A model generated the notes under the pieces. It was not told the origin of the DNA. It did no database searches and worked only from the letters and a program-made list of their open reading frames with translations. The position numbers and the translations under genes are program-made. DNA of 64,000 bases from an uncultured Prevotella sp. (GTDB taxonomy: Bacteria > Bacteroidota > Bacteroidia > Bacteroidales > Bacteroidaceae), in contig CAAGEG010000050.1 of NCBI GenBank assembly GCA_900768785.1, forward strand, positions 16,057 to 80,056, read 5' to 3'. How positions within the stretch are numbered: the first letter of the stretch is position 1; every line of letters begins with the position of its first letter. Below are positions 30,131 through 49,606 of the stretch, piece after piece.

Positions 30131-31495
30131 TTATTTCACCTTTTCTATTAGTTCGTCTGTTGTAACGAGCGATTGTTCTCCCGTTGTCATGTCTTTCAAA
30201 GTGATTTTCTGCTCGTTTATCTCATTTTCTCCCGCCATTGCTACAAAGCGAACGCCATTGCTGTTGGCGTAGCTCATCTGTTTTTTCATTTTTACAGCGT
30301 CGGGATAAATCTCTGTTGCCACACCTGCTTCTCTTGCTTTTGCCGCTATGGGCATGCAGTAGGCGGTCTCTTTTTCTCCGAAATTGATGAAGAGCAGTTG
30401 TGTGTTCGACATGGCGTTTTCGGGGTATAGGTCAAGTGTGTTCAACACATCGTATATGCGGTCTGCGCCGAAAGAGATACCAACACCGCTTATTCCGGGC
30501 ATGCCGAATATTCCTGTGAGGTTGTCGTATCGTCCTCCGCCTGTTATACTTCCTATTTGTACGTCGCAGGCTTTCACTTCGAAGATTGCTCCTGTGTAGT
30601 AGTTTAGTCCGCGTGCAAGTGTTAGGTCAAACTCAACTTCGTTGTTTAAGCCGCATTGTTTCAGCATGTTGAGTATGTAGTTTAGTTCTTCCACGCCTTT
30701 CATTCCTGCTTCCGAGCCTTTTAAGATGTTGCTCATTGTGGCGAGTTTCTCTTCGTTGGTGCCGCTAAGTGTTATTATTGGCTGCAGCTTTTCTATTGCT
30801 TCGCTGCTTAGTCCGTCGGCTGCCAGTTCGGCATTTACGTTGTCAAGACCTATTTTGTCAAGTTTGTCTATTGCTACGGTTATATCTACAATTTTGTCAG
30901 CCTCGTTAATGTATTCTGCTATTCCGCTTAGTATCTTTCTATTGTTAATCTTTATCAACACTTTTATCCCGAAGCGTGTGAACACGGTGTCGATAATCTG
31001 CATGAGTTCCACCTCGTTCATTAACGAATTGCTGCCTACAATGTCGGCATCACACTGATAAAACTCTCTGTAACGCCCTTTTTGCGGTCTGTCGGCACGC
31101 CATACGGGTTGTATCTGATAGCGTTTGAAGGGCATTTGAAGTTCGTCTCTGTGCATCACGACAAAGCGTGCGAATGGTACAGTGAGGTCGTATCTCAGTC
31201 CTTTCTCGCATAGTTTTGACGATAGTTTCAGCGAGTTGCCTTCCAAGAGTGCTTCTTTGTCTATTTTATTCAGGTAGTCGCCGCTGTTGAGTATTTTGAA
31301 CAACAATTTGTCTCCCTCTTCTCCGTATTTGCCGAGCAGTGTTTGGAGGGTTTCCATTGCCGGTGTTTCAATCTGCTTGAAGCCGTAGAGTGAGTAAACG
31401 GATTTTATGGTGTTGAATATGTAGTTGCGTTTAGACATCTCTAATGGTGAGAAGTCTCTTGTGCCTTTAGGGATTGTTGGCTTTGGTGCGTTCAT
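30131..31495 (-). CDS. hisS: Histidine--tRNA ligase
   Basis: [41 protein letters not shown]. Confidence 0.97.
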
Positions 31496-31528
31496 GATTA
31501 TGTTTACTTTGTTACCTTTTTCAGCCTT

Positions 31529-32800
31529 TTATCTTATTATTGTTTGTTCACGATCCGGACCTATGGATATGATAGCTATCGGTGTTTCGAGTTGTTCTTC
31601 AAGGAATTTTATGTAGTTTTTAAATTCTTCGGGGAACTGTTCCTCGCTTGTTATTTTTGTCATATCTGTTTTCCACCCTTTCATCTCTGTGTATATGGGT
31701 GTTATTCCGTCTTCTATGTTGTATGGGAAGTCTTCCATGCGTTTGCCGTCACGTTCATAAGCCACGCAGGCTTTGATGGTGTCGAATGTGTCGAGCACAT
31801 CGCTTTTCATCATAATGAGTTTTGTCACCCCGTTAACCATTATGGAGTATCTTAGAGCGACGAGGTCTATCCATCCGCATCGGCGTTCTCTTCCTGTGAC
31901 AGCTCCATATTCGTGTCCTATGGCGCGTATCTTGTCGCCTGTTTCGTCGAAGAGTTCTGTTGGGAATGGTCCTGCACCTACGCGTGTACAATAGGCCTTC
32001 ATTATGCCGAACACGTCTCCTATTTTGTTAGGTCCTATACCGAGTCCTACACATGCTCCTGCGCATATTGTGTTTGATGAGGTTACGAACGGATAACTGC
32101 CGAAGTCGACATCGAGCATTGTGCCTTGTGCTCCTTCGCAGAGTATGCTTTTGCCTTCTTTGAGGTGTTTGTTTATTACGTGTTCTGAGTCTATGATGTT
32201 GAATTGCTTGATATATTCTATTCCTTCAAGCCATTTCTTTTCTACGTCGCTAATGTCGTAGTCGGTGTATCCCATAGATTGGAGCATCTTTTCGTGTCTT
32301 GCTTTGTGTGCGGCATATTTTTCGCTGAAGTTTTCAAATATGTCACCCACTCTTAGTCCGTTTCTTGATACTTTGTCGGTGTAGGTCGGTCCGATTCCTT
32401 TGCCTGTGGTGCCTACTTTGTTCTTGCCTTTTGCTGCTTCGTAAGCTGCATCGAGCACTCTGTGTGTGGGCATTATGAGGTGGGCTTTCTTTGATATGCA
32501 GAGTCTTTCTTTGAGGTTGTGCCCGCTTTTTTCAAGGTCTTTGGCTTCGTCCATAAAGAGGTCGGGTGCGAGAACCACGCCGTTGCCGATGATGTTTGTC
32601 TTGCCTCCTTGAAAAATGCCTGAGGGTATGCTTCTTAGTACATATTTTTCGCCTTCAAACTCAAGGGTGTGTCCTGCGTTGGGACCGCCTTGAAATCTTG
32701 CTATTACGTCGTATTGTGGTGTGAGGACATCCACTACTTTGCCTTTTCCTTCATCTCCCCATTGGAGTCCGAGCAATACGTCAACTTTGCCTTGTTTCAT
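31529..32800 (-). CDS. purA: Adenylosuccinate synthetase
   Basis: QWGDEGKGK, GTTGKGIGPTY, EGAQG, YPFVTSS. Confidence 0.98.
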   Translation of the reverse strand: MKQGKVDVLLGLQWGDEGKGKVVDVLTPQYDVIARFQGGPNAGHTLEFEGEKYVLRSIPSGIFQGGKTNIIGNGVVLAPDLFMDEAKDLEKSGHNLKERLCISKKAHLIMPTHRVLDAAYEAAKGKNKVGTTGKGIGPTYTDKVSRNGLRVGDIFENFSEKYAAHKARHEKMLQSMGYTDYDISDVEKKWLEGIEYIKQFNIIDSEHVINKHLKEGKSILCEGAQGTMLDVDFGSYPFVTSSNTICAGACVGLGIGPNKIGDVFGIMKAYCTRVGAGPFPTELFDETGDKIRAIGHEYGAVTGRERRCGWIDLVALRYSIMVNGVTKLIMMKSDVLDTFDTIKACVAYERDGKRMEDFPYNIEDGITPIYTEMKGWKTDMTKITSEEQFPEEFKNYIKFLEEQLETPIAIISIGPDREQTIIR

Positions 32801-32842
32801 AATACTTGTTGTTCTGTTATTTGTTTTTGTTATTTGCTTTGT

Positions 32843-33322
32843 TTATTCTTTGTTTTTCCTTTTGTTGTTTTTGCGTGTCAGCGCACCTTGACATTTGCTG
32901 CATATTCCGTATATGCTGAATGTGTAGTTTTCTTTGCGAAAGCGTTTTGTACGAACGTTTCTGAATATTTCGTCAACCTCAGGCGATGATATTTTTGTTA
33001 CTTGTCCGCATAGTGTACACACGCTGTAACAGCCGTCTCCTGTAAATTCCGCTTTGTATCTTATGGCTTTGTTTATTCGTATTGCGGAGACAAGTTTTAT
33101 TTCCATAAGCAGGTTCAGGGTGTTGTATATTGTTGCCAGACTTACGTGGAAATGGTCTTTTTCCAGGATTGAACTGATATCATCTGTTGTGAAGAATCCT
33201 TCAAAACTGTAAGCGGCTTTCAGTATGGCAAACCTTTCGGGGGTTTTTCTGTATTTGTTCTGTGTCAAATAGTTGAGCAGAATGTTTATTGCCTTTTCTG
33301 TTATGTCGCTTGATGTGTCCAT
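32843..33322 (-). CDS. Fur-family transcriptional regulator
   Basis: RKTPERFAIL, VSLATIYNTL, CxxC and GICSKC. Confidence 0.88.
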   Translation of the reverse strand: MDTSSDITEKAINILLNYLTQNKYRKTPERFAILKAAYSFEGFFTTDDISSILEKDHFHVSLATIYNTLNLLMEIKLVSAIRINKAIRYKAEFTGDGCYSVCTLCGQVTKISSPEVDEIFRNVRTKRFRKENYTFSIYGICSKCQGALTRKNNKRKNKE

Positions 33323-33559
33323 GTGTGTTCGCTATTCCTTGACAAAATTACACAAAATGTATGTAATAAACGAATAAATCGTCAAGAAATGGTGTTGTTT
33401 CTTTATAATCGGCAAGTTGAGGGTTTGTTGTGTGGCTTGGTGGTTGTTTTTGTCTGTTGTCGGTCGTTGGGTTGGCGGTTTGGTGTGTCAAGGTTTTGTT
33501 GTGGTTGTGTTGTTTTCGGCGTGCCGTTTTTGTCGGTTGTTGGATCGGAGGTTCGGGGT

Positions 33560-34129
33560 TTATTGTCGTGTGTTGTTTTCGGTAAGTCGGTTTATGGCGT
33601 TTCCTGCTGCGTGTCTTACGGCTAAATTGTTGTGGTTCAAGGCTTTCTGTGCTAATGTTTTGAATGTTTCAAATTCGTTGTTTTCAAGCGTGATGCCTTT
33701 CATAAACAGTCGTGAAAGTGTCTGATAGCCGCAAATGGTTATAATGTCGCTCTTGTCTGTTATCCATTCAAGGGCGTGCTCTTTGGCGTTTTCTATGTGT
33801 TGAAACAGCTTCATGGCGGCAATTTCGGCTATCTCTTGGTTGGGTATCTCGTGTGCCCATGTTTTTGTTTTTTCGTGTGTCATTGTTTCGGGTGGCATCA
33901 TCATGAGTGCCAGTATCTTAGACTCGCGAATATCTTCTACCCATAACAGTTGTGCGAGTTCGTGGTCTTTGCCGTGTTGTTGTGCGTAGGCGGTGAGTTC
34001 GGGCAGACTGATGCCCCAAATTATTTTGTATGCGAGTCCTTTGTTTCTCATCGATTGTGAAACAACGCCGTTCATGTGCAGTCTGTACCATGTTTTCAGC
34101 TCTTTCAGTCTGTCGGTTGCCGTTGTCAT
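33560..34129 (-). CDS. DNA alkylation repair protein (AlkD-like HEAT repeat)
   Basis: MNGVVSQSM, WGISLPEL, LWVEDIRESKILA. Confidence 0.75.
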   Translation of the reverse strand: MTTATDRLKELKTWYRLHMNGVVSQSMRNKGLAYKIIWGISLPELTAYAQQHGKDHELAQLLWVEDIRESKILALMMMPPETMTHEKTKTWAHEIPNQEIAEIAAMKLFQHIENAKEHALEWITDKSDIITICGYQTLSRLFMKGITLENNEFETFKTLAQKALNHNNLAVRHAAGNAINRLTENNTRQ

Positions 34130-34160
34130 CTGTGTGGGTGTTTATATATTATAATATGTG

Positions 34161-36110
34161 TCAATATTCTCTGCTGTATCGCAACATCTGTTCGGTGTAG
34201 CTTTCGGTGTAGTCGGGCACAATGTCTGTTATCTTGCCTTTGTCGTCTCTGACGGCTTTAAGTCGGGGATTTACAAATCCTTTGTATGGCGGGATGTTCA
34301 GTTTGTCGTATCTTTCTTTTATTTCTTTGTGTAGTTCGGGGTCTGTTTTCACGGCGTATCTCTCTACGATATCTTTTGCTGCCTGATAGTCGCCTTCGCT
34401 CTTAATGCGCTGTATTTCAGCCAATAGCTGTGCAAACAGGTCTCTTAGTTTTTCATAGTCGTTGATTTTTACAAAGGTTTTGCCGTTTTTGCGAACAAGT
34501 TCTACTATGTTGTTTTTCTTGCCTTGTTCGTAACACCGGTGGGCTATGAGTGCTCTGTTTCTCATGTGGGCTTCTTCTATGTCTTGTCCTATGTTAATGC
34601 GAGCCATTTGTGTGAGCAGTCCGTTCATCATATAGGTATAATATGTTGCCTTGTATGCTTCTTTGTCGGGCAAGAGTCCCAAGTCGGTGAGTTTTTTGTC
34701 GGCGCAGTAGTATAGTCCGAATAGGTCGGCGCGAGCTTCTTCTATGGTACTTCCATATGCTTTCAGCGCGTCTTGACTTACGCCTTCAAGCAGTTGTCCG
34801 CTACCGTGTCCGAGACATTCGTGCAGGTCGGTGTGGATAATGTCACAGAGGTTGCCGTATTTATCTATGAGACAGCGTGTTTCGTTGTCTATGACAAATT
34901 CTTCAAGAAAGCCGTTGCCACGTGCAGCTTCGTTATATGCGTTGATGATATTGCTTATAGTAACGCTTTTCGAACCGTGTTGTGCTCTTATCCATTCGGC
35001 GTTTGGGAGGTTAATGCCAATGGCGGTAGCGGGATATTCGCCGCCACCGAGCATGGCGGCACATATAACGTTGGCTGTCACACCTTTAACTTGTTTTTTC
35101 TTAAATCTCGGGTCAACGGGTGAGTGGTCTTCAAACCATTGTGCGTTGTCGCTTATGAGGCGTGTGCGCATGGTGCCTTCTTTGTCTCTGTATTCCACGA
35201 GTCCTTCCCATGTGCCTTTAAGTCCTAAGGGGTCGTCGTAGGTTTCAATAAATCCGTTGATAAAGTCAATGTCGGCTTCGGTTTCTTTTACCCATTCTAT
35301 GCAGTAGGTGTTGAATGTTCTAAGGTCGCCTGTTGTGTAGTAGTCTATAAGGTGCTGTATTATAGAGCGTTGGTTGTTGTTTTCGGCTGTTTCTTTTGCT
35401 TTTTCAAGCCAATAGATAATGTGTGTTATCTGTTTGCTGTATTTGCCACCCACTCGCCATGTTTCTTCTTTTATTGTTCCGTTTTCTTTGACAACGGTTG
35501 TGTTAAGACCGAGTGAGAGGGGCTCTTTGTCGTTATTGTCTTTCAGTTGTGCATAGTAGGCTTCTACTTCTGCTTGTGTTACATCCACGAAGAAGTTGCA
35601 TGCCGAATTTTTAACTATATCTTCGTGGGCTTTTTTTGATACTTTTACGGGTGCTATGTTTGGGTCGTAAATTATTGGTATTAGCTCTTTTACGAGTTCT
35701 TCGTGTGTTTGTTTCTCGCTTAGTGGCAGCTGTTCTTTTTTTAGTGTGTTTACTGCGTCTGCGAAGAATTGTTTTGTGAAGTTTGGTATAAACTTTTCGC
35801 AACCGTAATGATGATATATACCGTTTGAGAACCACACTCTTTTGAGATAAGTTTCCAGTTGTCGGAAGTTGTCGGTGTTTCTGTCGCCTTCGTAGTGCAG
35901 ATAGATAGCTTCGAGGGTTTTGCGTATAAGTATGTTCCATTTGCCGAATTGGTCAAATGTGATGTCTCGTCCTGCGAGTGCAGCTTTGGCGAGATAGTAG
36001 GCGAGGGCCTTTTGCTTGAGGGTGAGTTGTTCGAAGTTCTCAAGTCTATATCTTAGTATTCTTATATCGGCGAAGTCTTCTACGATATATTGAAACTTAT
36101 CTTCTGTCAT
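34161..36110 (-). CDS. Dipeptidyl-peptidase III (M49)
   Basis: HECLGH zinc motif, EEARAD, GINLPN. Confidence 0.93.
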   Translation of the reverse strand: MTEDKFQYIVEDFADIRILRYRLENFEQLTLKQKALAYYLAKAALAGRDITFDQFGKWNILIRKTLEAIYLHYEGDRNTDNFRQLETYLKRVWFSNGIYHHYGCEKFIPNFTKQFFADAVNTLKKEQLPLSEKQTHEELVKELIPIIYDPNIAPVKVSKKAHEDIVKNSACNFFVDVTQAEVEAYYAQLKDNNDKEPLSLGLNTTVVKENGTIKEETWRVGGKYSKQITHIIYWLEKAKETAENNNQRSIIQHLIDYYTTGDLRTFNTYCIEWVKETEADIDFINGFIETYDDPLGLKGTWEGLVEYRDKEGTMRTRLISDNAQWFEDHSPVDPRFKKKQVKGVTANVICAAMLGGGEYPATAIGINLPNAEWIRAQHGSKSVTISNIINAYNEAARGNGFLEEFVIDNETRCLIDKYGNLCDIIHTDLHECLGHGSGQLLEGVSQDALKAYGSTIEEARADLFGLYYCADKKLTDLGLLPDKEAYKATYYTYMMNGLLTQMARINIGQDIEEAHMRNRALIAHRCYEQGKKNNIVELVRKNGKTFVKINDYEKLRDLFAQLLAEIQRIKSEGDYQAAKDIVERYAVKTDPELHKEIKERYDKLNIPPYKGFVNPRLKAVRDDKGKITDIVPDYTESYTEQMLRYSREY

Positions 36111-36123
36111 TTATTTGTGGTTT

Positions 36124-36573
36124 TTATTGTTCTGTTTCTTTTGCTTTTTTCTCTTTTGTCATACGAAGATAAAGCTGAAGATATTGGCGCGGTGTGATTT
36201 GAAAGTTTTTATAAAAGGCGGCATAAAAAGGTTGTCGGTGCTTAAACCCCACAAGTCCGGCTATGTCTTGAACGTTAAGGTTTAATTCTTTAAGTTTCTG
36301 TATATATTTGAGTGAAGCTTCAACTCGGCATTTATTGACAAAAGACGGAAAGTTCATGCCGTAGCCGAGTTTAATTGCCGCTGCCACATATCGTGTGTTG
36401 GTGTTGAGCTCTTTTGCGAGCTGTTCGATTCTATAATTCTCAACAAGATATCTTTTTTTCTTGACTATTGTTTCTTTTATTTTTGGTTTTAGTTCCTGAA
36501 TTCTCTTTTTCGGGATAGTGTTTGTGTACGCTGCCGGTTCTTTTTCGTTTGGGTGAATTTGATATTTTGCCAT
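36124..36573 (-). CDS. AraC-family HTH protein
   Basis: LAKELNTNTRYV..GMNF..IAGLVGF..FYAAF..TPRQY. Confidence 0.85.
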   Translation of the reverse strand: MAKYQIHPNEKEPAAYTNTIPKKRIQELKPKIKETIVKKKRYLVENYRIEQLAKELNTNTRYVAAAIKLGYGMNFPSFVNKCRVEASLKYIQKLKELNLNVQDIAGLVGFKHRQPFYAAFYKNFQITPRQYLQLYLRMTKEKKAKETEQ

Positions 36574-36812
36574 AATCCTGATTGTTTTATTAATGTATCG
36601 ATTTGCAAATTTACGAAAAACAAAGGAAACGCGAGTTGTTTAATAGCTATTTTTGATTTCTGTGGTTTTATTTTTCTTATATATAAATATGTACGAGTAC
36701 CTTATAATAAATACGATAGTGATATCGTTTGCCAAATGTTTACAAAACAGCGCTGTTTTTAACGTCTCGTGGAGTGGAAAATCTACATAAATATTACTCA
36801 TGTGTGAAAATA

Positions 36813-36895
36813 AGACAAAATGTCATACTGACTGACAAAAAGTCACTATAGTTTAATGTGTTGGTGCTTTTTAAAATTCAGGCATGGTGTTTGTT
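36813..36895 (+). promoter_or_regulatory. Two TGACA/TGTCA-type dyads plus sigma54-like -24/-12 element upstream of the 404-aa ORF
   Basis: AGACAaaaTGTCA 36813-25, TGACAaaaAGTCA 36833-45, AGGCATGGTGTTTGT 36880-94 (GG-N10-GT). Confidence 0.5.
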
Positions 36896-36925
36896 ATATT
36901 TTATGTATAATCAATTTTTTTTAAT

Positions 36926-38140
36926 ATGATCATTACCACTATAGTAGAAAAGAATGAGGAAGGCCTAAAAACAATATTACAGGCCGCAAGTATGTTCTGT
37001 GAAGAACGTTATTTATATGCAATTTTTCAAAATAATATGACGAAAGACGAAGTGGTTCGTCTTACAAGTTTTGTGCGTTCTAAAGAGTCTCAATTCAATT
37101 CAGAGATTCTTTCGCTTGCTAAATTCGCCCATAAGTGGCTTGATAGCTATGCAACAGATAATAACAGCTGTTTTGATGCTGCTGCAAATATGTTAAATAA
37201 AATCAGAGGTGCGATTAGTGGGGCTAAAAAAATTTATAAAAAGTTTTGCAAAAGAACAAGACGACAGCTTCCAAATGTAAACAACTGTTCTGTGCTTGCG
37301 CCATCTGAAAATGTAAACACACGTTCTGTGTTTAAGGCATCTGAATTAGCTAACCCTAATTATATTGATGATTTTTTCGGGATCGGCTCGTATGACGCTT
37401 GTGTTGCTGATTTATATAAAATACTTGAAATATTTTATCGAGAATTTTATTTTAGTTTAACGTTGTGCCGCATGATGTTAAGGTTAGAGGCACAGAAGAG
37501 AAATTCGCCTGAAATTATGGATATTTACAATAAAGCCATATGCGAAATGACTAAAGAGGCGAAAGAATTAATAGAGATTTATAAGGGGGCAGGTATCGAA
37601 GTCCCGCTTGATGACTTGAGTAAGGCAATTAGGGATAGTGATGACCGACTAATGGTTATTGCAGGCAATTATCATGCGTTGGATAAAACAACAATGAAAA
37701 TGCATGTTGCTCGGCAGCTTCAGGAGAAAAGTAAATCTACCGGACTTACCGTTGATGAACATATTCTGTGGCCCAACCAAACTGACAATGTGATTATTTA
37801 TCGGAATATGGCTCAACATTACGACGAAATAAGTCCTAAAAACAAAGATGGGAAACTTAATAGTTACGAAGTGGCTGCTTTCATGAGTTGGACAGGAATT
37901 AAAGAGAATGAAAATAAAACTACAACATTTGCGAAATGGCTTAGAGAAAATTATAGGGGGCAATATGCTCTGCCTGCTGCTAATACATTGAACAAAGCTA
38001 AAAACAAAGTAAATTTAAACAATGCAGACAATCATTTTTTGGATAAGGGTAGTTTTGATGTAAGATTGGATGAGCTTGCCACTAAGTATAATCACAGCCC
38101 AAAAAATATTCTTGACGACGCTTCAATTACTTTTAATTGA
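36926..38140 (+). CDS. Hypothetical protein (404 aa), no recognised domain
   Basis: Long open frame, ATG, followed by a strong terminator. Confidence 0.8.
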   Translation: MIITTIVEKNEEGLKTILQAASMFCEERYLYAIFQNNMTKDEVVRLTSFVRSKESQFNSEILSLAKFAHKWLDSYATDNNSCFDAAANMLNKIRGAISGAKKIYKKFCKRTRRQLPNVNNCSVLAPSENVNTRSVFKASELANPNYIDDFFGIGSYDACVADLYKILEIFYREFYFSLTLCRMMLRLEAQKRNSPEIMDIYNKAICEMTKEAKELIEIYKGAGIEVPLDDLSKAIRDSDDRLMVIAGNYHALDKTTMKMHVARQLQEKSKSTGLTVDEHILWPNQTDNVIIYRNMAQHYDEISPKNKDGKLNSYEVAAFMSWTGIKENENKTTTFAKWLRENYRGQYALPAANTLNKAKNKVNLNNADNHFLDKGSFDVRLDELATKYNHSPKNILDDASITFN

Positions 38141-38348: not shown

Positions 38349-38466
38349 CCTTAGCTTAGACGGGGAAAATGGTCAAGCGTTGGACCGTAGGCCGGTGCTA
38401 CTTCCTTAGTCTTTGCGAGGCAGCTTCGGTGTAGCACCTGAAGAATATGCCGGAAAGAATATTTAT

Positions 38467-39039
38467 ATGTTAAATATTAGTAAAGCAAAATTCTCGATGT
38501 TTAATCCGGGAATTAACAAACCATCGGGGCAAAAGCCCTACATGCAGGGGACTTTGAGCGACGTCTTCGCTGTGATGAACACTCCCCAGATAGCGCAGCT
38601 TACGCGAGAATTACGGGCGCTAAAAGATGAGAAACAACAGAAGCTCTTTAAGGCTGAAAAACTTCCGTTTGTGACGTTTTCCGGGCAGTTCTCTTATCGT
38701 AACACAAAAGGACTGATTGCCCATTCGGGGTTGATGTGTTTTGATTTTGACCATCTTTCTAATGACGCTGATGTTCAGCGCGTTAGAAAGGTGCTGCTCG
38801 GTGACCCTACGTTTGCGACAGAACTGATGTTCACTTCTCCGCGTGGGAATGGCGTTAAGTGGGTAACACACATAGACTTAGAGCGCGGCGACCACGCGAA
38901 GTGGTATAGGGCGATTCGACAATACCTATTATATAAATATGGTATAGAAGCCGACCCGGCCCCTTCGAGTGTGTGTTCGGCGTGTTTCCTGTGCTGGGAT
39001 GCCGATTTAGTTATAAATAATCAAATATGCGTATTTTAA
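38467..39039 (+). CDS. BT4734/BF3469 (VirE_N) family protein, AEP primase-like (start placed at MLNISK)
   Basis: KLPFVTFSGQF..R, HSGLMCFDFDHL (DxD), FTSPRGNGVK, ACFLCWD. Confidence 0.85.
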   Translation: MLNISKAKFSMFNPGINKPSGQKPYMQGTLSDVFAVMNTPQIAQLTRELRALKDEKQQKLFKAEKLPFVTFSGQFSYRNTKGLIAHSGLMCFDFDHLSNDADVQRVRKVLLGDPTFATELMFTSPRGNGVKWVTHIDLERGDHAKWYRAIRQYLLYKYGIEADPAPSSVCSACFLCWDADLVINNQICVF

Positions 39040-39051: not shown

Positions 39052-41310
39052 ATGACAGATAATATATTAAATTTTGACCTTGATTTGTGGTCAAATGCTG
39101 AAAATGAGAGTGCTAAGGGTGCAAACCAAAGTGCTAACGGTGTAGTTCCATGCGCCAACAGAGGTTCTGCGGCGAGCGCTAATGTTGCTGCCCCAATCGC
39201 TAATGGCGTAGTTCCAAGCGCCAACAGAGGTGCTGCGGTGAGTGTAAATAGTGCAAACCCAAGTGTAAATGGCGGTTCTGCGGCGAGTGTAAATGGTGCA
39301 ACCCCAAGTGCTAACGGTGTAGTTCCAAGCGCTAACGGCGGTAATTCTACCGAAAACAGCGAAAGCGACGACATGCCTGTTTGGGACACTTATGACGAGG
39401 TAAAAACCTTCGTTGATGAGCTTTGCGATGCGCAAATAAACATCTGCGAAACCTACGACCAATGGTTTAAAATTGGCTTTGCCCTTGCGGGCTGTCTCGG
39501 CGAAGAGGGTAGGGAGTTGTTCCACCGCCTTTCGGCGCAGTCTTCGAAGTACGATTTCGCGGAAAATGAGAAAAAATACGACAACTGCTTGCGCACATAC
39601 AATGGCAGCATTAACATCCAAACGCTATATTGGTATGCCCGCGAGGCTGGTTTTGACCTCGTTGACTATGCCGTGCGCCATAACCTCGAAGTGGACTATA
39701 GCACCATTGAGGAAGAGTGTCTGCAGGGAGAAAGCGATGTGGAAGTTGGCACAGTTGGCACAGTTGGCACAGTTGGCACGACACGTATTTTAAATAGTAA
39801 TTATTATAACTCATTGATAATCAATGATAGTAATATTTTAGAAGAAAAAACAAGGGGCGTGCCAACTGTGCCAACTGTGCCAACTGTGCCAACTTTTTCG
39901 GACCAAATTGCCGAAGATGAGTGGTGTGATTACTTGCGCCCTATTGTTCAAAAAATGAAAGATGCCGAGTCGCGAGACAAAATGCTGCTCTCTGCCCTTG
40001 TGCTCAACTCCGCCCTTATGCCCAACCTCTACGGGCGATACGGAAATAAAGATATTTATCCTAATTTATATCTTATAATCAGCGGCCTGTCGGGTGGCGG
40101 AAAGGGCGAAATACAGCTGGCGAAGCACATCGTCAAGCCATACAGCGACGAAGCCAAGAAAAACTTCGAGAAGGCATTAGCGGATTATCAACAGAAATTC
40201 GCCCTTTGGAAAGAGGCGGCAAAGCAGAAAAAAGACCCTACTAAGATTGGCGATGCACCCATAGAGCCACAGGAAAAATATATCTTTATACCAGCCGACT
40301 CTACTGAGGCGGCAGCTCTGCGCGAACTAAAAATTAACGAGGGCAAAGGTATTATTTTCGACAGCGAGGGCTCGGTGGTGCGCAAAGCGTTAAAGTCAGA
40401 TTACAAGGATTATAGCTCTATTATGCTCAAGGCATTTCATCACGAAAATATCTCGGTGGCGCGTATTAAGGACGAAATCCGCTACGACATTCCCAACCCT
40501 CGCCTCTCTATTCTTCTCACCTGCACACCGGGTGAACTTCCCAAGTTGTTCCCCTCGTTCGAAGACGGTCTGGGCACTCGTTTCCTCTTTTACCAGCTTG
40601 CGCCACACGTGGAATGGAAAGACCAACTTAACGACGACGACCAGCTCGATTATCTCTTTTATGAACTCGGTACGCAGACGTTGGATTTTTATCATCAGCT
40701 CGCCGACCTCAAAAACCGACGAATTAAATTTCTACTCACCCCTGAGCAGCAACAGAGGTTCAACAACTTCTTCCAAGAGGTTCAGCTTCAAGAGTTCGAG
40801 ACTCATGGCGACGGCATACTCTCGTTTGTTAAACGTCTCGGTCTGAGCGCCTTTCGGTTGGCTATGGTTCTGTCGCTCCTCCGACGACACAGCGACCGCA
40901 AAGGCATAATGCACCTCTTCACGGAGAGCGAGCAGACCCTCATTTGCAACGATTTAGACTTCCGGATTATGCTCACTATCATAGAAACGCTCGTGGCGCA
41001 CACAACTTCAATGTTCGCCGAAATAGCAGCTCAAAATGAGCTTCCGGGCTCTAACCGCGCAGCGCAGAGCAACATGGAGCTGGTTCTCTTCAACGCCCTT
41101 CCGCCCCAGTTTACTAACATGGATTTAAAGAACGTGGCAGCACAAATTAACCTATCTGAACGAGCAGCGAGGAAATATCTTACTAAATTCCTCAACGAAT
41201 ATAGAACTATTGAGCGCATAAAGTACGGGCATTATAAGAAAGTTGTTCAAAACAATGCGTCCGGCAATCCAAAAAACAACGCTTTTAGCAACCCAAAACA
41301 ACGTGTTTAA
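39052..41310 (+). CDS. PriCT-2 + DUF3987 (YfjI-like P-loop helicase) protein with repeat insertions
   Basis: PriCT-2 YDQWFKIGFALA..GRELFHRLS; Walker A GLSGGGKG; Walker B IIFDSEG; PRLSILLTCTP; DGLGTRF; C-terminal wHTH-like segment. Confidence 0.85.
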   Translation: MTDNILNFDLDLWSNAENESAKGANQSANGVVPCANRGSAASANVAAPIANGVVPSANRGAAVSVNSANPSVNGGSAASVNGATPSANGVVPSANGGNSTENSESDDMPVWDTYDEVKTFVDELCDAQINICETYDQWFKIGFALAGCLGEEGRELFHRLSAQSSKYDFAENEKKYDNCLRTYNGSINIQTLYWYAREAGFDLVDYAVRHNLEVDYSTIEEECLQGESDVEVGTVGTVGTVGTTRILNSNYYNSLIINDSNILEEKTRGVPTVPTVPTVPTFSDQIAEDEWCDYLRPIVQKMKDAESRDKMLLSALVLNSALMPNLYGRYGNKDIYPNLYLIISGLSGGGKGEIQLAKHIVKPYSDEAKKNFEKALADYQQKFALWKEAAKQKKDPTKIGDAPIEPQEKYIFIPADSTEAAALRELKINEGKGIIFDSEGSVVRKALKSDYKDYSSIMLKAFHHENISVARIKDEIRYDIPNPRLSILLTCTPGELPKLFPSFEDGLGTRFLFYQLAPHVEWKDQLNDDDQLDYLFYELGTQTLDFYHQLADLKNRRIKFLLTPEQQQRFNNFFQEVQLQEFETHGDGILSFVKRLGLSAFRLAMVLSLLRRHSDRKGIMHLFTESEQTLICNDLDFRIMLTIIETLVAHTTSMFAEIAAQNELPGSNRAAQSNMELVLFNALPPQFTNMDLKNVAAQINLSERAARKYLTKFLNEYRTIERIKYGHYKKVVQNNASGNPKNNAFSNPKQRV
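39109..39350 (+). repeat. About 11 degenerate in-frame 21/24-bp tandem units (SANGVVP / SANRGAAV)
   Basis: 7-8 aa units with a 22-aa (66-bp) higher-order period at the N-terminus of the helicase ORF. Confidence 0.9.
39743..39895. repeat. Perfect 38-bp inverted repeat (4 x AGTTGGCAC per arm) around a 77-bp AT-rich core with centred palindrome
   Basis: Arms 39743-39780 and 39858-39895 are exact reverse complements; TCATTGAT-A-ATCAATGA at 39811-27; both are centred on 39819. Confidence 0.97.
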
Positions 41311-41330: not shown

Positions 41331-41564
41331 ATGTTCAAAAACAACGAAGATTTCACAATCAAAACATACACGAAAAAAGAGCTCGCCTGTCTCTATTTTC
41401 CCGACGCCAACGACCCGCACACAGCCGTTAACCACCTCATGGCGTGGGTGCACCGCTGTCGCGGGTTGCCCGAAAAGTTAGCCGAACTCGGCTACAACAA
41501 AAACAGCCGCCTGCTCACGCCCAGACAAGTTCGGGAGATTGTCTTTTATCTCGGCGAGCCGTAG
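41331..41564 (+). CDS. DUF4248 family small DNA-binding-like protein
   Basis: YTKKELACLYFP..AVNHLMAW..LGY..LLTPRQVREIVFYLGEP. Confidence 0.88.
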   Translation: MFKNNEDFTIKTYTKKELACLYFPDANDPHTAVNHLMAWVHRCRGLPEKLAELGYNKNSRLLTPRQVREIVFYLGEP

Positions 41565-41891: not shown

Positions 41892-42323
41892 ATGATAAAG
41901 TACGTTTTAAAGCAAAACCAGAACAACACAACTTCAGCCTACAAAAAGTATTATGCTCACCCGGTTATCGAAAGTACAATGAACCTGAACGACCTTGCTC
42001 GCCACATGTCAGAACACGACACAGGCTTCTCTGAAGCTATGATTGTGGGAGTATTGAAGGCTATGGTAAGATGTATCAAAGAGATGATCCTCGACGGCAA
42101 AAACGTGAAGATAGACGACCTCGCAATATTCTCTTGCGGCATTCGCAACGCCGAAGGAGCAGCATCTGAAGACGACTTCACCGTCGCCAAAAACATCAAG
42201 GGCGTTAAGCTCCGTGCCCGCGCCACAGGTTCGTTGAGCAACACCAACCTCAACCTTGCTGCAACGCTGAAGAAAGCCACAGCGCTGGACACCCCCGCCG
42301 CAGCAGCAGCACCAAAAGCATAA
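41892..42323 (+). CDS. Bacteroidetes HU/IHF-like DNA-binding protein
   Basis: KYYAHP..MNLNDLARHM..ILDGKNVKIDDLAIFS; promoter TATCTTTG at 41797-804. Confidence 0.88.
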   Translation: MIKYVLKQNQNNTTSAYKKYYAHPVIESTMNLNDLARHMSEHDTGFSEAMIVGVLKAMVRCIKEMILDGKNVKIDDLAIFSCGIRNAEGAASEDDFTVAKNIKGVKLRARATGSLSNTNLNLAATLKKATALDTPAAAAAPKA

Positions 42324-42339
42324 CTTTGGTGGGGAACAT

Positions 42340-42364
42340 AGACCTGCGTCCACGCAGGTCTTTT
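42340..42364 (+). terminator. Intrinsic terminator after the HU gene
   Basis: AGACCTGCGT-cc-ACGCAGGTCT-TTT. Confidence 0.75.
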
Positions 42365-42535
42365 GTTAAGAACGTGCGGCACGTTAAGAACGTTAAGAAC
42401 ACACGGACCGTTAAACCGTTAAGAACGTTAGGAACGTTAATAACGCAAGGAACGCAAGGAATGTAAGCAACGCAAGCCACACACGGACCGTTAAACCGTT
42501 AATAACGTTAGGCACGTGCGGAACGCAAGCCCGTT
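42365..42535. repeat. Degenerate 9-bp repeat tract (GTTAAGAAC/GCAAGGAAC) with a duplicated block
   Basis: ACACACGGACCGTTAAACCGTTAA at 42399 and 42479 (80 bp apart). Confidence 0.85.
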
Positions 42536-42575
42536 AGTAAAAGCCCCGCTTGATAACTTTTTTTAAAACAAAAAC

Positions 42576-42785
42576 ATGAGTGTCCGTGAAACAAGAAGGG
42601 GCAATACCGTTCCGCCCCACACCGTTGGTCTTCACGTCAGAGCCCAAGAGCCGACAGATCACATAGATTGTCCCTTTCTTGATTTTATAAGTTGCATCAT
42701 CCAGGACGCAACCGATAATAATAATGAGGAGGAAGCAGAAGTCACCCGCCGCCCGAAGGACGCAACGTGCAAAGGGGGTAAATAA
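42576..42785 (+). CDS. Candidate small protein (69 aa)
   Basis: ATG preceded by TTTTAAAACAAAAAC, identical to the context upstream of the DUF3987 gene. Confidence 0.45.
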   Translation: MSVRETRRGNTVPPHTVGLHVRAQEPTDHIDCPFLDFISCIIQDATDNNNEEEAEVTRRPKDATCKGGK

Positions 42786-42820
42786 CAAACCAACAGAAAA
42801 CGGCGAGCCACCTCTCGGAA

Positions 42821-43050
42821 CTGCATCTCTCGCGTGCGTGGAAACTTCCGCCGGAGGAGTAGCAACATTAGGACTTGAGATGAGCTGCATCTCTCGCTCG
42901 CGTGGAAACTTCCGCCGGAGGAGTAGCAACATCAGGACTTGATATGAGCTGCATCTCTCGCGCTCGCGTGGAAACCAAAACGACTTAATACAAAGACAAA
43001 AGCAAGTGATTACGGCTGCATCTATTGTGCGTGCGTGTGGGAACTTTCTG
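42821..43050. repeat. 64-bp tandem repeat (2 full, 1 partial, 1 degenerate copy)
   Basis: CTGCATCTCTCGC..GCGTGGAAAC starts at 42821, 42885, 42949; degenerate at 43016. Confidence 0.9.
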
Positions 43051-43074
43051 CAGAAAAGCAACCGCAAGAGACAG

Positions 43075-44421
43075 CTACAAGAGCTCTATTTTTAGAATGT
43101 TTTTTGTCTCTTCGGTTATTCTGAACGAGTTGTCAGGGCGAAGATTTACAAGCCATAATATTTTGTTATTCCTTTCTGTCACAACAAGTTGTCGTTGTTT
43201 GTCAAATAGCGACAGCTTGTTGTCAGTTAGGAAATCGCTCACCAATTTACTACCCCTCATCCCCAGAGGACAAAAGCGGTCGCCCGGTGCCACCTTTCTT
43301 ATTAAGAGAGGAAAAGCCGCCCGGTCAGCGTCAGCCATCAAGCAACATTTGCGCTTGTCAATCTTTACATCATCAGTCATCGGGAAGACGCTCACCCGCA
43401 GCTTGGTATTCTCATCATACAGATACGTTCCCTCTTCCGGTATCCTCATTACCTTGTCATTATAAGCCCCGCGCCGCTCGATTATTATATATTTACGGTC
43501 TATAAGCAGTTGATGGTCAGCTGAGTAGAACACCTTTCCCGATTGTGACGCCATAGTCTTTGTTATGCTCTCCGCATCAGCAGAAGTGAAGCCGTAACCG
43601 CTTACGATTTTCCAAACCACATCCTCGCAATAATCAAATTCCAAGAGTTTGTTTATGTCTATCGTTACCCCTCCGCTTTCAGTTGTGACACACACTTCCG
43701 AAGCAGCTTTGTTTACAGTGTCGTTGTATATCTTCGCAACACTTTCCAGTCGTCTTGCCGTGCGCTCTATGCACTCCTGAGCAGCAGGATTTATATCTTT
43801 GATAATGGGTATTAAATTCAGTCGCACCTTGTTTCTTCGCACATCGTCTTTCAGATTGCTGCTGTCGGTTACATAGCTCTGTTTCAGTAGGTTAAGGAAG
43901 TCGAGTATGTCAGCTTTCGATACACAGAGCAAAGGCCGTATTATATTGTTGTTTTTTGCCGCTATTCCCGTCAGTCCATTTATGCCCGTTCCTCTGAAAA
44001 GGTTCAAAAGCACCGTTTCCACGCTATCGTCCCTATGGTGCGCCACGCAGACAGCCGTAGCCCCTATGTCGTGAGCCAGTTTTTGGAAATAGTCGTAGCG
44101 CAACTCCCGCGCTGCCATTTCGATACTTACCTTATGCAGCTCGGCATATTCGCGCGTGTCAAAGTGCACCCGATGAATAGTCACGCCAAGTTTCTCACAC
44201 AGTCGAACAGCAAACAATTCATCGTTAAGAGCTTCATTGCCACGCAGTTGGAAGTTGCAATGCACAGCCTCAACCTCATAGCCCAACCGCACAAGCGCAA
44301 TCAATAACGCCACGCTGTCAGCCCCTCCCGACAGTCCCACAAGGCACTTGTCAGTAGGTTTCAGCAAGTCACGCCCTTTTATATATTGCGCCACACGCTT
44401 TAGAAAATCGTCAGCCATCAT
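43075..44421 (-). CDS. tilS: tRNA(Ile)-lysidine synthetase
   Basis: SGGADS PP-loop, EMAARELRY, AHHRDDSVET, IRPLL, RNKVR. Confidence 0.95.
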   Translation of the reverse strand: MMADDFLKRVAQYIKGRDLLKPTDKCLVGLSGGADSVALLIALVRLGYEVEAVHCNFQLRGNEALNDELFAVRLCEKLGVTIHRVHFDTREYAELHKVSIEMAARELRYDYFQKLAHDIGATAVCVAHHRDDSVETVLLNLFRGTGINGLTGIAAKNNNIIRPLLCVSKADILDFLNLLKQSYVTDSSNLKDDVRRNKVRLNLIPIIKDINPAAQECIERTARRLESVAKIYNDTVNKAASEVCVTTESGGVTIDINKLLEFDYCEDVVWKIVSGYGFTSADAESITKTMASQSGKVFYSADHQLLIDRKYIIIERRGAYNDKVMRIPEEGTYLYDENTKLRVSVFPMTDDVKIDKRKCCLMADADRAAFPLLIRKVAPGDRFCPLGMRGSKLVSDFLTDNKLSLFDKQRQLVVTERNNKILWLVNLRPDNSFRITEETKNILKIELL

Positions 44422-44439
44422 GAGAAAAAGAAAAGCAAA

Positions 44440-45621
44440 TCATTCAACGTAGAGCACAAGACCCTTAAGATATTCACCCTCAGGATGATAGATGTTTATA
44501 GGGTGGTCGGCAGGTTGATGCAGCTGATGAAGAATTCTCACGTTACGTCCCGCCTGAGCCGCCGCCGTAAACACCGCATTTCTGAAGTTATCTTTCGTCA
44601 CCACCTGCGAGCAGGAGAATGTAAAGAGGATACCACCCTTACGAATACGCTGGAAAGCCTTCACGTTAAGTCGTGTATAACCTTTCAAAGCATTATGTAA
44701 CGCCGCCCGATGTTTGGCAAACGCCGGTGGGTCAAGTATTATAAGGTCGTATTTGTTGTCAGCGGCATCAAGAAATTTGAAAGCATCCTCGCAGAACGCC
44801 TCATGTCGGTTGTCGTCAGGGAAATTAAGTTCCACGTTAGCGTTGGTCAGTTCGATAGCCTTAGCGCTACTGTCAACCGAGTGTACCGTTTTAGCACCCC
44901 CTCGCATAGCATAAAACGAGAAGCCCCCCGTGTAGCAAAACATGTTTAGTACCGTTTTGTCTTTGGCGTAACTCTCTAACAGACAGCGGTTTTCACGTTG
45001 GTCAACAAAGAAACCCGTTTTCTGTCCGCGCAGCCAATCCACATGGAATTTCAGTCCGTTTTCCACAGCGATGTTATCGTTGCATCCCCCGACAATGAAA
45101 CCGTTTTCTTGACCCAACCCCGCCTTGTATGGAAGCGTGGTTTCAGATTTGTAGAACACATGTTCTATTCTGTCGCCCATCACCCTTACCAGTTGTTGAG
45201 CAATAACATTGCGATGTCTGTGCATGCCCACGCTATGTGCCTGCATCACAGCCGTTTTGCCGTAGCAGTCGATTACGAGTCCCGGCAGGTTGTCGCCCTC
45301 GCCGTGAACAAGACGGTAAGTGTTGTTAGTAGGGTTGTCGGCAATGCCCGTCAGTCTTCTCATTTCAAGCGCAGACGTAAGACGTTCGCACCAAAACCCC
45401 TCGTCAATGTCAATATCTTCAAACGTCAGCACCCTGACAGCGATGCTCCCAACCTGGAAATGCCCTATGGCGATGAACTCATTATCGGCATTAAGCACCC
45501 TCACCGTTTCGCCCTCTTCGATATTGTTATCGGCAAAAGCTATGGCACCCGAGAATATCCAGGGATGGAAGCGTTTGAGGCTTTCCTCTTTGCCCCGTTT
45601 AAGTACGATTGTTTTATACAT
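44440..45621 (-). CDS. rlmI: RlmI-like 23S rRNA m5C methyltransferase
   Basis: HPWIFSG, RLVHGEGDNLPG, GQKTGFFVDQRENR, ILDPPAF, EGEYLKG. Confidence 0.88.
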   Translation of the reverse strand: MYKTIVLKRGKEESLKRFHPWIFSGAIAFADNNIEEGETVRVLNADNEFIAIGHFQVGSIAVRVLTFEDIDIDEGFWCERLTSALEMRRLTGIADNPTNNTYRLVHGEGDNLPGLVIDCYGKTAVMQAHSVGMHRHRNVIAQQLVRVMGDRIEHVFYKSETTLPYKAGLGQENGFIVGGCNDNIAVENGLKFHVDWLRGQKTGFFVDQRENRCLLESYAKDKTVLNMFCYTGGFSFYAMRGGAKTVHSVDSSAKAIELTNANVELNFPDDNRHEAFCEDAFKFLDAADNKYDLIILDPPAFAKHRAALHNALKGYTRLNVKAFQRIRKGGILFTFSCSQVVTKDNFRNAVFTAAAQAGRNVRILHQLHQPADHPINIYHPEGEYLKGLVLYVE

Positions 45622-46282
45622 TTTGCTCCTTTGTTTCTAATTGTTCGTCAGTTGTCTGCTCGTTGTCAGGCACTTCAACAAGTTTGTAACATCTCTCACG
45701 CATCAGTCTTTCCAGCTCGTTATAAATCATTACACACGCCCACGCATCAGTGGCGGCATAAAGCTTTTGGCTGTCAGTAAGGATGTCAGCCTCCCAGTTG
45801 CTCAGTTGCGCCGTTTTGCTTATCTTTTCATTAAAAATATTCGCATAAATCTTCTGTAAGCTGAGGTCTTTGATACCCACTTCGCCCACAATGTTTTGAA
45901 GGTCAATCATGTTTTCAGGTTTGAACTCGCCCCGCTTGTGTAAAGACAAGATGTCGTCGTGAAGCGACAAACCAATCTTCATTACCGACTTGTCTTCCAG
46001 AAACTTAACTATAGCAGGAGTAAACCCCGTAAGATTTAGCCGGAAAAGAAAACAAATGTCAAGCGTAGCCACCTGCAACAACGCCACCAAGCGGCTCTGT
46101 CCCTTCTTGAACGAGGGTCGCGTCTCGGTGTCTATGCCGACAATCTTTTGAGAAAGCAAGAAATTGATAGCCTTGTCAGCCTCTTTTGCCGTTGTGATGA
46201 CAACAATTCTCCCGCCAAACACCGCTCTCGGCAGTCGGGCAATGCAGCTTTTATCAAACTTGTTATATATCAGTCGTTCCAT
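45614..46282 (-). CDS. 3'-5' exonuclease (DEDDy, RNase D/WRN-like); start placed at MERLIY
   Basis: GIDTETRPSF, SNWE, YAATDAW. Confidence 0.88.
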   Translation of the reverse strand: MERLIYNKFDKSCIARLPRAVFGGRIVVITTAKEADKAINFLLSQKIVGIDTETRPSFKKGQSRLVALLQVATLDICFLFRLNLTGFTPAIVKFLEDKSVMKIGLSLHDDILSLHKRGEFKPENMIDLQNIVGEVGIKDLSLQKIYANIFNEKISKTAQLSNWEADILTDSQKLYAATDAWACVMIYNELERLMRERCYKLVEVPDNEQTTDEQLETKEQNV

Positions 46283-46455
46283 TATTATAAATAAAAATGG
46301 TTTGCAAAAATATAAAAAAAAGGCGACTTTTATGGTCTGTTCTAACATTTTTCAATTACTTTTGCAAATAAAAGGAGTTTGGCAACTACAAATTCCCGCT
46401 ATTTTAGTGCAACACTTAAAGCAAAGACAACAAAAACAAAACAGCTCAAATAACC

Positions 46456-48936
46456 ATGCCAAAGAAAAAGACCAAGCCCGCAAGCAAGACATTCAGTGAA
46501 GCTTTAGGGCTGAACAACATATTGCAGAACGACATCATCAACTTTGTAGCAGGCATCATCCTGTTATTGCTGTCGGTATATTTCATCATCGCATTCATCT
46601 CCTTCCTCTCAACAGCCGGCGACGACCAAAGTTTGGTTCTTGACCTGCGTCCCGGAGAGATACTCAATTCAGACAAGACATTCAAAAACAGCTGCGGCTC
46701 ATTTGGCGCATTCCTTTCTTACTTCTTCATATCAAGATGTTTCGGCTATGCCGCATTCATCATACCCGTATTTATGGGCATGGTAGGACTGAAAATGGTA
46801 AAAGCCTACAATTTCAGACTTCTCAAAATGTTTGTTTGCCTCACGGTGGTAATGATTTGGCTGTCGGTAACATCAGCCAAGCTGCTCACACCCATTATGG
46901 GAAGCATGGTCTATAATCCCGGTGGCGATCACGGACTATACTGTTGTCAGTGGATAGAAAACATTGTAGGCACACCCGGACTATCGGTAATACTTATACT
47001 CACCGCTTTGCTCTTCCTTACATACCTCAGCAGAGAAACTATAAACATAGTAAGAAAAATACTCAATCCCGTTAGCGCAATAACAAGCAAAGTGCCATTC
47101 TCGGTAACAGTAGGAAAAACCAACGACGACGGTAACACAAGCCACAAAGCAGAAGAAGACCCCACAACCTTTGACGACCCGGAGACACAAACCGTCGATT
47201 TCGGCAACGGTAAAGACACACCCGTTGTTGCCGGAGCAGGGGCAGTGAATGTTAACGATAACGATAACGAAAACGAAAACTCTTCAACCCAGACAAAGCA
47301 AAACAGCGGCAATGCCGAAAATACAGACGCAAACCAAACCGAACTTACAATAATAGAAAACGCAGAAGAAGAGACCGCCGGCTCACGTGTAGTATCAGGC
47401 GAGAAAGACCTCTCCGCACCAATAAACCCACTTGAACCATGGGTGAAATACCATTATCCCACACTCAGTCTGCTGAAAAAATACGACAACGACGGCAAGC
47501 CATATATCGACATGAAAGAGCAGACCCTAAACAAAAACCGCATCGTTGAAGTATTAAACAGCTTCGGTGTACAAATACGCACCATAACAGCAACAGTAGG
47601 ACCAACCATAACACTATATGAAATAACACCCGCCGAAGGTGTGAAAATATCAAGAATAAGAAACCTTGAAGACGACATAGCACTCAGCCTTGCCGCTTTG
47701 GGAATACGTATCATAGCACCCATACCCGGCAAAGGAACAATAGGTATAGAAGTGCCCAACGCCAAACCAAACATCGTCTCTATGGAAAGCATTCTCAACT
47801 CACGCAAGTTCCAAGAGACAACAATGGACCTGCCCATAGCAATAGGAAAGACTATTACTAATGAAGTCTTTATGGCAGACCTCACAAAAATACCACACCT
47901 CTTGGTGGCAGGCGCTACGGGACAAGGAAAATCAGTAGGACTAAACACTATTATAACATCGCTACTCTACAAAAAACATCCCAACGAACTCAAATTCGTC
48001 CTCATTGACCCCAAGAAAGTAGAGTTCAGCATGTACAACCCCATTGCCAACCACTTCATGGCAAAAGTCCCTGACGACAACGAAGAACCTATCATCACAG
48101 ACGTAAAGAAAGTCATACGCACCCTCAACGGACTTTGCAAACTCATGGACATGAGATACGACCTGTTAAAACTTGCCGGAGCAAAGAACATCAAGGAATA
48201 CAATAATAAATATGTAAACCATAAACTAAGGCTAACCGATGGACACGAATACATGCCCTACATCGTCGTAATCATAGACGAGTTCGGAGACCTTATCATG
48301 ACAGCAGGCAAAGAAATAGAAATGCCTATCGCACGTATAGCCCAACTCGCACGAGCAGTAGGAATACACATGGTTATTGCAACACAAAGACCAACAACAA
48401 CAATTATTACAGGTAACATAAAAGCCAACTTCCCGGGACGTATGGCGTTCAGAGTAAGTTCTATGATTGACTCAAGAACAATTCTCGACCGCCCCGGCGC
48501 AAACCAACTAATCGGACGAGGAGACATGCTCTTCCTCAATGGCAACGAACCCGTACGTGTTCAATGCGCATTTGTCGATACACCCGAGATTGAAGACATA
48601 AACAAATATGTCTCATCACAGCCCGGACCGACAGAACCAATGGAACTGCCCGAACCCGTATCAGAAGAAGACACAGATGTGGCACATGGAGGCATTGACA
48701 TGCACTCTATAGACCCACTCTTTGAAGATGCAGCACGCACAATAGTGTCCACACAACAAGGCTCCACAAGCATGATACAAAGACGATTCTCAATAGGATA
48801 CAACAGAGCCGGACGCATAATGGAACAAATGGAGAAAGTGGGAATAGTAGGCGGAGCACAAGGAGCAAAGCCACGAGAAGTGTTGATACAAGACGAAACA
48901 TCGCTTGAAAACATTATTGCACAACTGAGAAAATAA
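46456..48936 (+). CDS. ftsK: DNA translocase FtsK
   Basis: N-terminal TM, PHLLVAGATGQGKS, IIDEF, ATQRP, gamma domain IQRRFSIGYNRAGR. Confidence 0.96.
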   Translation: MPKKKTKPASKTFSEALGLNNILQNDIINFVAGIILLLLSVYFIIAFISFLSTAGDDQSLVLDLRPGEILNSDKTFKNSCGSFGAFLSYFFISRCFGYAAFIIPVFMGMVGLKMVKAYNFRLLKMFVCLTVVMIWLSVTSAKLLTPIMGSMVYNPGGDHGLYCCQWIENIVGTPGLSVILILTALLFLTYLSRETINIVRKILNPVSAITSKVPFSVTVGKTNDDGNTSHKAEEDPTTFDDPETQTVDFGNGKDTPVVAGAGAVNVNDNDNENENSSTQTKQNSGNAENTDANQTELTIIENAEEETAGSRVVSGEKDLSAPINPLEPWVKYHYPTLSLLKKYDNDGKPYIDMKEQTLNKNRIVEVLNSFGVQIRTITATVGPTITLYEITPAEGVKISRIRNLEDDIALSLAALGIRIIAPIPGKGTIGIEVPNAKPNIVSMESILNSRKFQETTMDLPIAIGKTITNEVFMADLTKIPHLLVAGATGQGKSVGLNTIITSLLYKKHPNELKFVLIDPKKVEFSMYNPIANHFMAKVPDDNEEPIITDVKKVIRTLNGLCKLMDMRYDLLKLAGAKNIKEYNNKYVNHKLRLTDGHEYMPYIVVIIDEFGDLIMTAGKEIEMPIARIAQLARAVGIHMVIATQRPTTTIITGNIKANFPGRMAFRVSSMIDSRTILDRPGANQLIGRGDMLFLNGNEPVRVQCAFVDTPEIEDINKYVSSQPGPTEPMELPEPVSEEDTDVAHGGIDMHSIDPLFEDAARTIVSTQQGSTSMIQRRFSIGYNRAGRIMEQMEKVGIVGGAQGAKPREVLIQDETSLENIIAQLRK

Positions 48937-49587: not shown

Positions 49588-49606
49588 AAAATAAGACCCA
49601 TAGTTT

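Follow-up and report, generated by a model that had tools for sequence, protein, structure and literature searches.

A symmetric, origin-like element inside a DUF3987 helicase gene of Prevotella, its dispersed copies and a strand-skew footprint in neighbouring host genes

Replication origins of the SaPI/PICI type are the closest described counterpart of the site considered here. In the excerpted reports on SaPIs, the helicases load themselves via a C-terminal winged helix on opposed iterons, which surround an AT-rich centre and are located downstream of rep (PMC9371898; bioRxiv 10.64898/2026.10.17.759575). Among Bacteroidota, the AgaPP/AgaPH replicases of integrative elements combine a PriCT-DUF3987 relative, an oligomeric 5'-3' helicase, with the BT4734-like primase-polymerase that it binds, and the latter (AgaPP) carries out microhomology end joining; in the excerpts of that paper (PMC11724360), 'origin' is never used for a replication origin. 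A further parallel, as far as the excerpts of PMC2697382 describe it, is the run-off replication of Bartonella from a phage-derived helicase locus, which differs from the present case by another helicase family, a single origin, a range of hundreds of kb and its coupling to a gene transfer agent; the word 'skew' is absent from that paper. Our search of the open-access literature has yielded the proteins only, and no description of the candidate origin or of its dispersal reported below. The origin of lambdoid phages lies inside gene O, has iterons on one side only and depends on a separate initiator and loader.

The window, i.e., the whole stretch of 64,000 nucleotides that was analysed and to which all coordinates without a contig name refer, stems from an uncultured Prevotella sp. 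(genome G000, contig C50). Between an AraC gene and tilS it holds a cassette in which the two protein families of AgaPP/AgaPH occur in the same order as in the excerpts of PMC11724360:

36926..38140, plus strand: 404-aa protein with no Pfam family; homologues stand upstream of two other integrase-free cassettes
38413..39039, plus strand: BT4734-like primase-polymerase (Pfam), with an ATG start at 38467
39052..41310, plus strand: PriCT-2/DUF3987 helicase of 752 aa (Pfam, structure model)
41331..41564, plus strand: DUF4248 protein (Pfam)
41892..42323, plus strand: HU-HIG (HU/IHF-like) DNA-binding protein (Pfam)

Whereas an integrase (family 3) is present in most loci related to AgaPP/AgaPH (53 of 84), the window cassette belongs to an integrase-free class with DUF4248/HU: no tyrosine integrase (PF00589) has been found on contig C50, all ten matches of the genome being on other contigs, and no tRNA gene has been found within the window. 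Phage records contain only distant relatives, and the 404-aa protein has given only a weak lead to DUF6043. The primase-polymerase possesses all of the DFD, GxK and third-Asp motifs described in the excerpts of PMC11724360. In the helicase, Pfam places PriCT_2 at aa 128-196 and DUF3987 at aa 308-656; the linker that carries the element (aa 214-275) is disordered in the structure model, and a C-terminal helix-helix-helix-hairpin (aa 674-730, pLDDT >80) is read as a winged helix. The best structural matches of the model are MCM subunits (E ~1e-5), with a TM of only 0.2-0.3. Several other repeats have been observed in and around the cassette: two pairs of 12-bp TGAGTGACCAAC-type repeats that precede the primase gene (38215-38301), possibly regulator sites; in-frame repeats of 21, 45 and 66 bp that make up a disordered N-terminal extension of the helicase (39087-39342); nested GGATTTGTAATCC-type hairpins (41641-41729), which are REP-like and found again between genes in many other places of the genome; and, beyond the HU gene, a block of 9-bp repeats organised in 80-bp units (42370-42529) and three 64-bp repeats (42818-42975). 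In three genomes, integrase-free cassettes (L054, L057, L058) have an upstream pair of EcoRI-type methylase and GmrSD genes in common.

The linker-encoding part of the helicase gene contains a symmetric element, which is composed and bordered as follows:

39698..39742, plus strand: upstream gene segment of up to 45 bp, included in many dispersed copies (copy comparison)
39743..39780, plus strand: left arm, four 9-bp iteron-like AGTTGGCAC units (sequence)
39781..39857, no strand: AT-rich 77-bp spacer, putative unwinding region, 1-6% diverged in dispersed copies (sequence)
39807..39819, minus strand: match to what we take to be the IHF-site consensus, overlapping the palindrome at 39811-39827
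39858..39895, plus strand: right arm, four opposed GTGCCAACT units (sequence)
39896..39967, plus strand: downstream gene segment of up to ~71 bp, included in dispersed copies and encoding the family-conserved TFSD (copy comparison)

The arms are exact reverse complements over 38 bp and form the longest perfect inverted repeat in the window (arms within ~300 bp), the runner-up being an unrelated one of 17 bp. The units start at 39744, 39753, 39762 and 39771 on the left and at 39859, 39868, 39877 and 39886 on the right, with 79 bp between the arrays proper, and the spacer has 78% A+T, as compared with ~47% G+C in the surrounding 2 kb. These coordinates confirm the exact 38-bp arms, the four plus four 9-bp units and the 77-bp AT-rich spacer described in a first-pass annotation of this DNA, and its in-frame peptide GTVGTVGTVGT...VPTVPTVPT between PriCT_2 and DUF3987 is borne out by translation and Pfam. 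The palindrome that it had placed on the symmetry axis does exist as an 8-1-8 sequence (39811-39827) centred at 39819, but its outer part is not conserved among dispersed copies: the second base is changed in 12 of the 14 copies that show the palindrome, and only the inner 6-1-6 is kept. The changed base coincides with the N position of the presumed IHF consensus, and a similar, NSLIIN-type peptide is found at the place of the IHF match in homologues P0003-P0005 (37-44% identical). Folding of the element strand has given z = -14 against 200 shuffles, and a comparison with Rfam has given no match.

Homologues have been collected by an alignment-based scan of genome contigs. Of 89 ORFs, four were dropped (linker uncovered), and the rest were merged by similarity to 31. 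The linkers were compared by an opposed 6-mer score, since scoring inverted repeats about a fixed axis overlooked degenerate arrays and misplaced the anchor at some loci. Opposed arrays (two or more units on each side) have been found at the same linker position in 8 of the 31 homologues. Control windows of equal length, taken from farther downstream in these genes, have given 0 of 301, and synonymous recodings 14 of 1550; the other 23 linkers stay under the threshold, and many look degenerate by eye. The unit is lineage-specific (TCCGCA, TCCCCA, CCCTCA, TCCTCC, GTGCCA, TCGCCA, GTGACA), mirror peptides such as CADCADA...CANAQTAQ and FANLPICH...WQNWQNWQN are encoded, and the arrays are present in integrase-bearing islands as well as in integrase-free cassettes. 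The closest relative, P0001, matches over the full helicase length (82%) and has similar arrays. The sequence of the element itself has not been found in 40 relatives beyond short weak matches, a loose pattern of it has given two unrelated-looking matches in 300 family genomes, and nothing has been found in metagenome scans (by pattern and by P0001) or in a viral pattern scan. An opposed array that is conserved in position and variable in sequence is how an origin bound by a co-evolving helicase would be expected to look. The comparison of homologues proposed in the first-pass annotation has thus recovered differing units at one linker position, in line with its claim of selection at the DNA level.

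It is highly probable that the element represents an origin-type site of the cassette's own helicase. With the SaPI/PICI origin, as excerpted, it shares opposed iterons (here four plus four) and an AT-rich centre, together with a primase and an SF3/SF6 ring helicase bearing a C-terminal winged helix (here from Pfam and the model, the MCM matches being of low TM). SaPI origins are located downstream of rep and on integrase-bearing, excisable islands, whereas the present element stands in frame inside the helicase gene of a cassette without integrase and has been multiplied over the chromosome. The anatomy is like that of a SaPI origin, with a chromosome-wide extension. The lambdoid origin, to which the element had initially been compared, is similar in its location inside the coding sequence of a replication gene; the rest does not fit, one-sided iterons and a separate initiator and loader both being absent here, and the SaPI/PICI origin is the closer model. 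The suggestion of a DNA-level site at which the encoded helicase would be loaded in both directions is supported by the shared linker position with differing units in homologues, the MCM-like fold and C-terminal winged helix of the model, and the analogy to SaPI anatomy.

By analogy to SaPI Rep and AgaPP/AgaPH, two DUF3987 hexamers would bind the opposed arrays via their C-terminal winged helices, the HU/IHF-like protein may bend the centre of the element, the AT-rich spacer would melt, and the BT4734-like primase-polymerase would prime behind the helicases. As such an origin would lie within a disordered, dispensable linker of the gene, its 9-bp period keeps the frame, and as the cassette lacks an integrase and has a fixed place among housekeeping genes, firing would unwind host DNA for ~10-15 kb each way. 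While helicase and primase-polymerase are engaged on one strand, the template of the leading strand would remain single-stranded, and the sign of the footprint may be reversed in consequence. The strand whose 5'-3' direction points to the origin would be single-stranded longest and would acquire A-to-G and C-to-T changes. A gene fragment holding the putative origin has been copied out and spread between host genes, and the copies, keeping the core, might be recognised in trans, more weakly. An own-helicase origin that fires into host DNA, with copies recognised in trans, is as a whole the best explanation and a reasonably probable one; for activity of the origin in the chromosome, copies included, the scales are evenly balanced.

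Strand skew has been calculated as G+T over C+A at fourfold-degenerate sites, with coding-strand bias removed, and forms two zones of opposite sign around the cassette:

28137..38140, no strand: left skew zone with hisS-, purA-like and other host genes, G/T-rich on the plus strand (skew)
41892..53286, no strand: right skew zone with tilS, ftsK-, lolA- and groEL-like genes, C/A-rich on the plus strand (skew)

The reversal at the cassette (-0.74, in host genes within ~12 kb) is the strongest of 1746 positions on contigs >21 kb (mean 0.006, SD 0.11), and dispersed copies of the element on contigs C21 and C75 rank second and sixth, while a copy of a second array family (see below) lies 4 kb from the fourth. 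With increasing distance from the cassette the skew amounts to -0.15, -0.42, -0.46, -0.21 and -0.08, with a peak at 3-10 kb and fading by 15-25 kb. The reversal is seen in genes of both orientations and in intergenic DNA, and it resembles the outcome of A-to-G plus C-to-T changes on the strand that points to the element. Orthologues in 13 relatives are without it; the T-A skew of ftsK, for example, is -0.54 here versus 0.08 ± 0.08. The skew around the cassette points to additional sites of unwinding or replication initiation in the chromosome. Its sign is the reverse of that expected at a standard origin, and by the same statistic 38-39 other DUF3987 loci range from -0.14 to +0.18 versus -0.42 here (one further locus unscored). 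Since the sign is reversed and the pattern is repeated neither in a second genus (G315, below) nor at the other DUF3987 loci, we can only infer firing. A tie between iteron orientation and skew sign has been considered and dropped, as TTGGCA and TTGCCA are one base apart and the orientation is the same across the family. The third-strongest reversal of the genome (-0.31) is located near position 27500 of contig C58, on the margin of a polyvalent phage-type gene of 3099 aa, where an opposed array has been looked for and none found.

Besides the gene copy, the element occurs at 19 other G000 sites, of which six are complete, nine are cut after the left arm or spacer and four comprise the right part; contig ends cut 13 of the 19, and because some sites are halves at such ends, the number of distinct copies is at least 15. 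All dispersed copies lie outside ORFs of at least 90 aa, among housekeeping genes. They include up to 45 bp of upstream and 71 bp of downstream gene sequence, and, since these helicase-gene flanks comprise the TFSD codons, they are derived from the gene. Divergence from the gene copy has been found to be 1.8-2.3% in the arms and 1.2-5.8% in the spacer, and 12-16% in the inner (adjoining, gene-derived) flanks. A search for empty orthologous sites for comparison has found none. Dispersal is not common, as the query used has detected a single copy or none in genomes G021, G015, G228, G046, G047, G042, G043, G045, G041, G044 and G048. At the dispersed copies a weak echo is seen: the skew is -0.085 and -0.09 within 6 kb, with nothing beyond, and -0.054 within 10 kb, a value reached in 10 of 2000 matched random sets (P ~0.005). 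Counted by sides, 7 of 23 are at or below -0.15 and 0 of 23 at or above +0.15, compared with 21 of 300 in either direction at other contig ends. A 22-bp tandem intergenic repeat family with ~90-120 BLAST matches in G000 (e.g., C163:23120-23300) often adjoins the dispersed copies.

A genome of another genus, G315, has an integrase-free cassette with a different linker element and ~30 copies of that element, 27 of 29 lying outside ORFs. Both arms have the same majority unit in 29 of the 30 copies, with four unit types, whereas 10000 shuffles have given a mean of 7.9 and a maximum of 17, the copies being related to each other. The two complete G000 copies with an 8-bp period likewise have both arms changed together. 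Between copies, the G315 unit is variable at three of six positions, which is more than a strict binding site would suggest. The skew at the G315 cassette has the opposite sign (+0.04, +0.12, +0.28), and the copies show only +0.01 to +0.02.

These observations also bear on a distinctly less probable reading, tentative but the strongest of the alternatives, in which origin function is confined to the cassette and the copies are passive, MITE/REP-like passengers, their symmetry being due to arm-to-arm template switching and their likeness to gene conversion or recent spread. The joint change of both arms would fit such passengers, as would the patchwork that the copies form with other repeat modules, the position of 12 of 29 G315 copies between convergent genes and the little skew at the latter; moreover, G000 is rich in other intergenic repeats and retains dnaA, so that the spread may be passive. 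With MITEs and REP/BIME sequences, as commonly pictured and as excerpted for P. gingivalis MITEs (PMC5771137), the copies share being short, palindromic and intergenic in many copies, often between convergent genes. The terminal inverted repeats and fixed ends of MITEs are absent, however, as the copies are helicase-gene-derived, with ragged ends and internal inverted repeats, and the passive reading is further opposed by the skew echo at the G000 copies and by a core far better conserved than adjoining flanks of the same origin.

In place of an origin, one may also postulate a recurrent break site, caused by cruciform cleavage or collapse of the loaded helicase, at which 5' resection would leave the strand that points to the site single-stranded and resynthesis would write the skew, copies being pasted at breaks by the end-joining activity of the primase-polymerase. 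The sign and the decay of the skew over 10-15 kb may fit resection, the hairpin is stable, and microhomology end joining is performed by AgaPP (excerpts of PMC11724360), but the degenerate arrays of many homologues could not pair well, and Pfam has revealed no nuclease in the cassette. In addition, a 77-bp loop makes cruciform extrusion unlikely and counts against this reading, which we consider improbable. Marginally less likely again is a cassette located at the chromosome terminus, or acting as a two-way fork barrier, with the skew as the ordinary converging-fork pattern. Indeed, the sign is terminus-like and the left flank is positive for ~55 kb; yet the amplitude of ~0.45 exceeds both the maximum of 0.17 among 22 stretches of one complete genome of the genus and the mean of 0.07 for 75 windows of 20 kb in G000, the decay takes place within 15 kb, an echo is seen at dispersed copies, and no convincing match to what we take to be the dif pattern has been found near the cassette.

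An intragenic inverton, in which inversion of the spacer between the arms would switch off the helicase, would be favoured by the 38-bp perfect arms and by an in-frame stop in the flipped spacer, but is very improbable: the spacer is flipped relative to the gene-derived flanks in 0 of 14 assembled copies with a central spacer, no recombinase has been found on the contig, and homologous arrays are often imperfect or unequal in length. Least credible of all is an assembly artefact, i.e., a mis-join at a repeat that makes the element or the skew reversal, for even in a draft genome of 171 contigs with so many sites cut by contig ends, the frame runs through the element, P0001 shows a full-length match with similar arrays, and a higher skew amplitude on both sides is not what a mis-join would produce.

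G000 also contains multiple copies of two further families of opposed arrays, each of them associated with a different replication gene. The second family consists of GTGACAGT or GTACAGTT units with an AT-rich spacer; its gene copy (C69:42159-42312; skew -0.33, -0.29, -0.19) sits at the start of a 434-aa gene without Pfam family, behind which a CHC2 zinc-finger gene and DUF4248 are located, and five other copies occur at C75:1-143, C21:1-170, the end of C147, C10:26388-26606 and the start of C78. In the third family, the units are AAGATGGC or AGGGTGT and the two arms change jointly; it has been found at C46:205-364 and C157:101-415, with two tandem copies on C157, and occupies a SaPI-like position at the 3' end of a BT4734-N/VapE-like gene. 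In a third DUF4248-HU cassette (L142, C35:4199-7883), BT4734/DUF3987 is replaced by a Lin1244_N protein together with a Toprim-DnaB primase-helicase, so that the replication module seems exchangeable. On a phage-like contig, nested opposed CTAATGTTTC arrays inside a 326-aa gene (C91:693-892) form a candidate lambda-like intragenic origin.

At its boldest, and with considerable doubt, the origin reading may be extended to some Prevotella-related bacteria in which a satellite's primase-polymerase and MCM-like helicase would have been domesticated and the associated origin distributed over 15-30 chromosomal sites, which would give many secondary, DnaA-independent origins that re-replicate or unwind patches of 10-30 kb and act as local mutators, with several origin families per genome. 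For the widespread BT4734-like/DUF3987 replicases of Bacteroidota, the element names a testable origin, and for the integrase-free primase-helicase-DUF4248-HU cassettes it provides a first approach to their function. Should the copies fire, a bacterial chromosome with numerous additional origins would exist in nature, and a mobile replicase would leave a local mutation footprint in housekeeping genes, which would bear on the calling of origins from skew.
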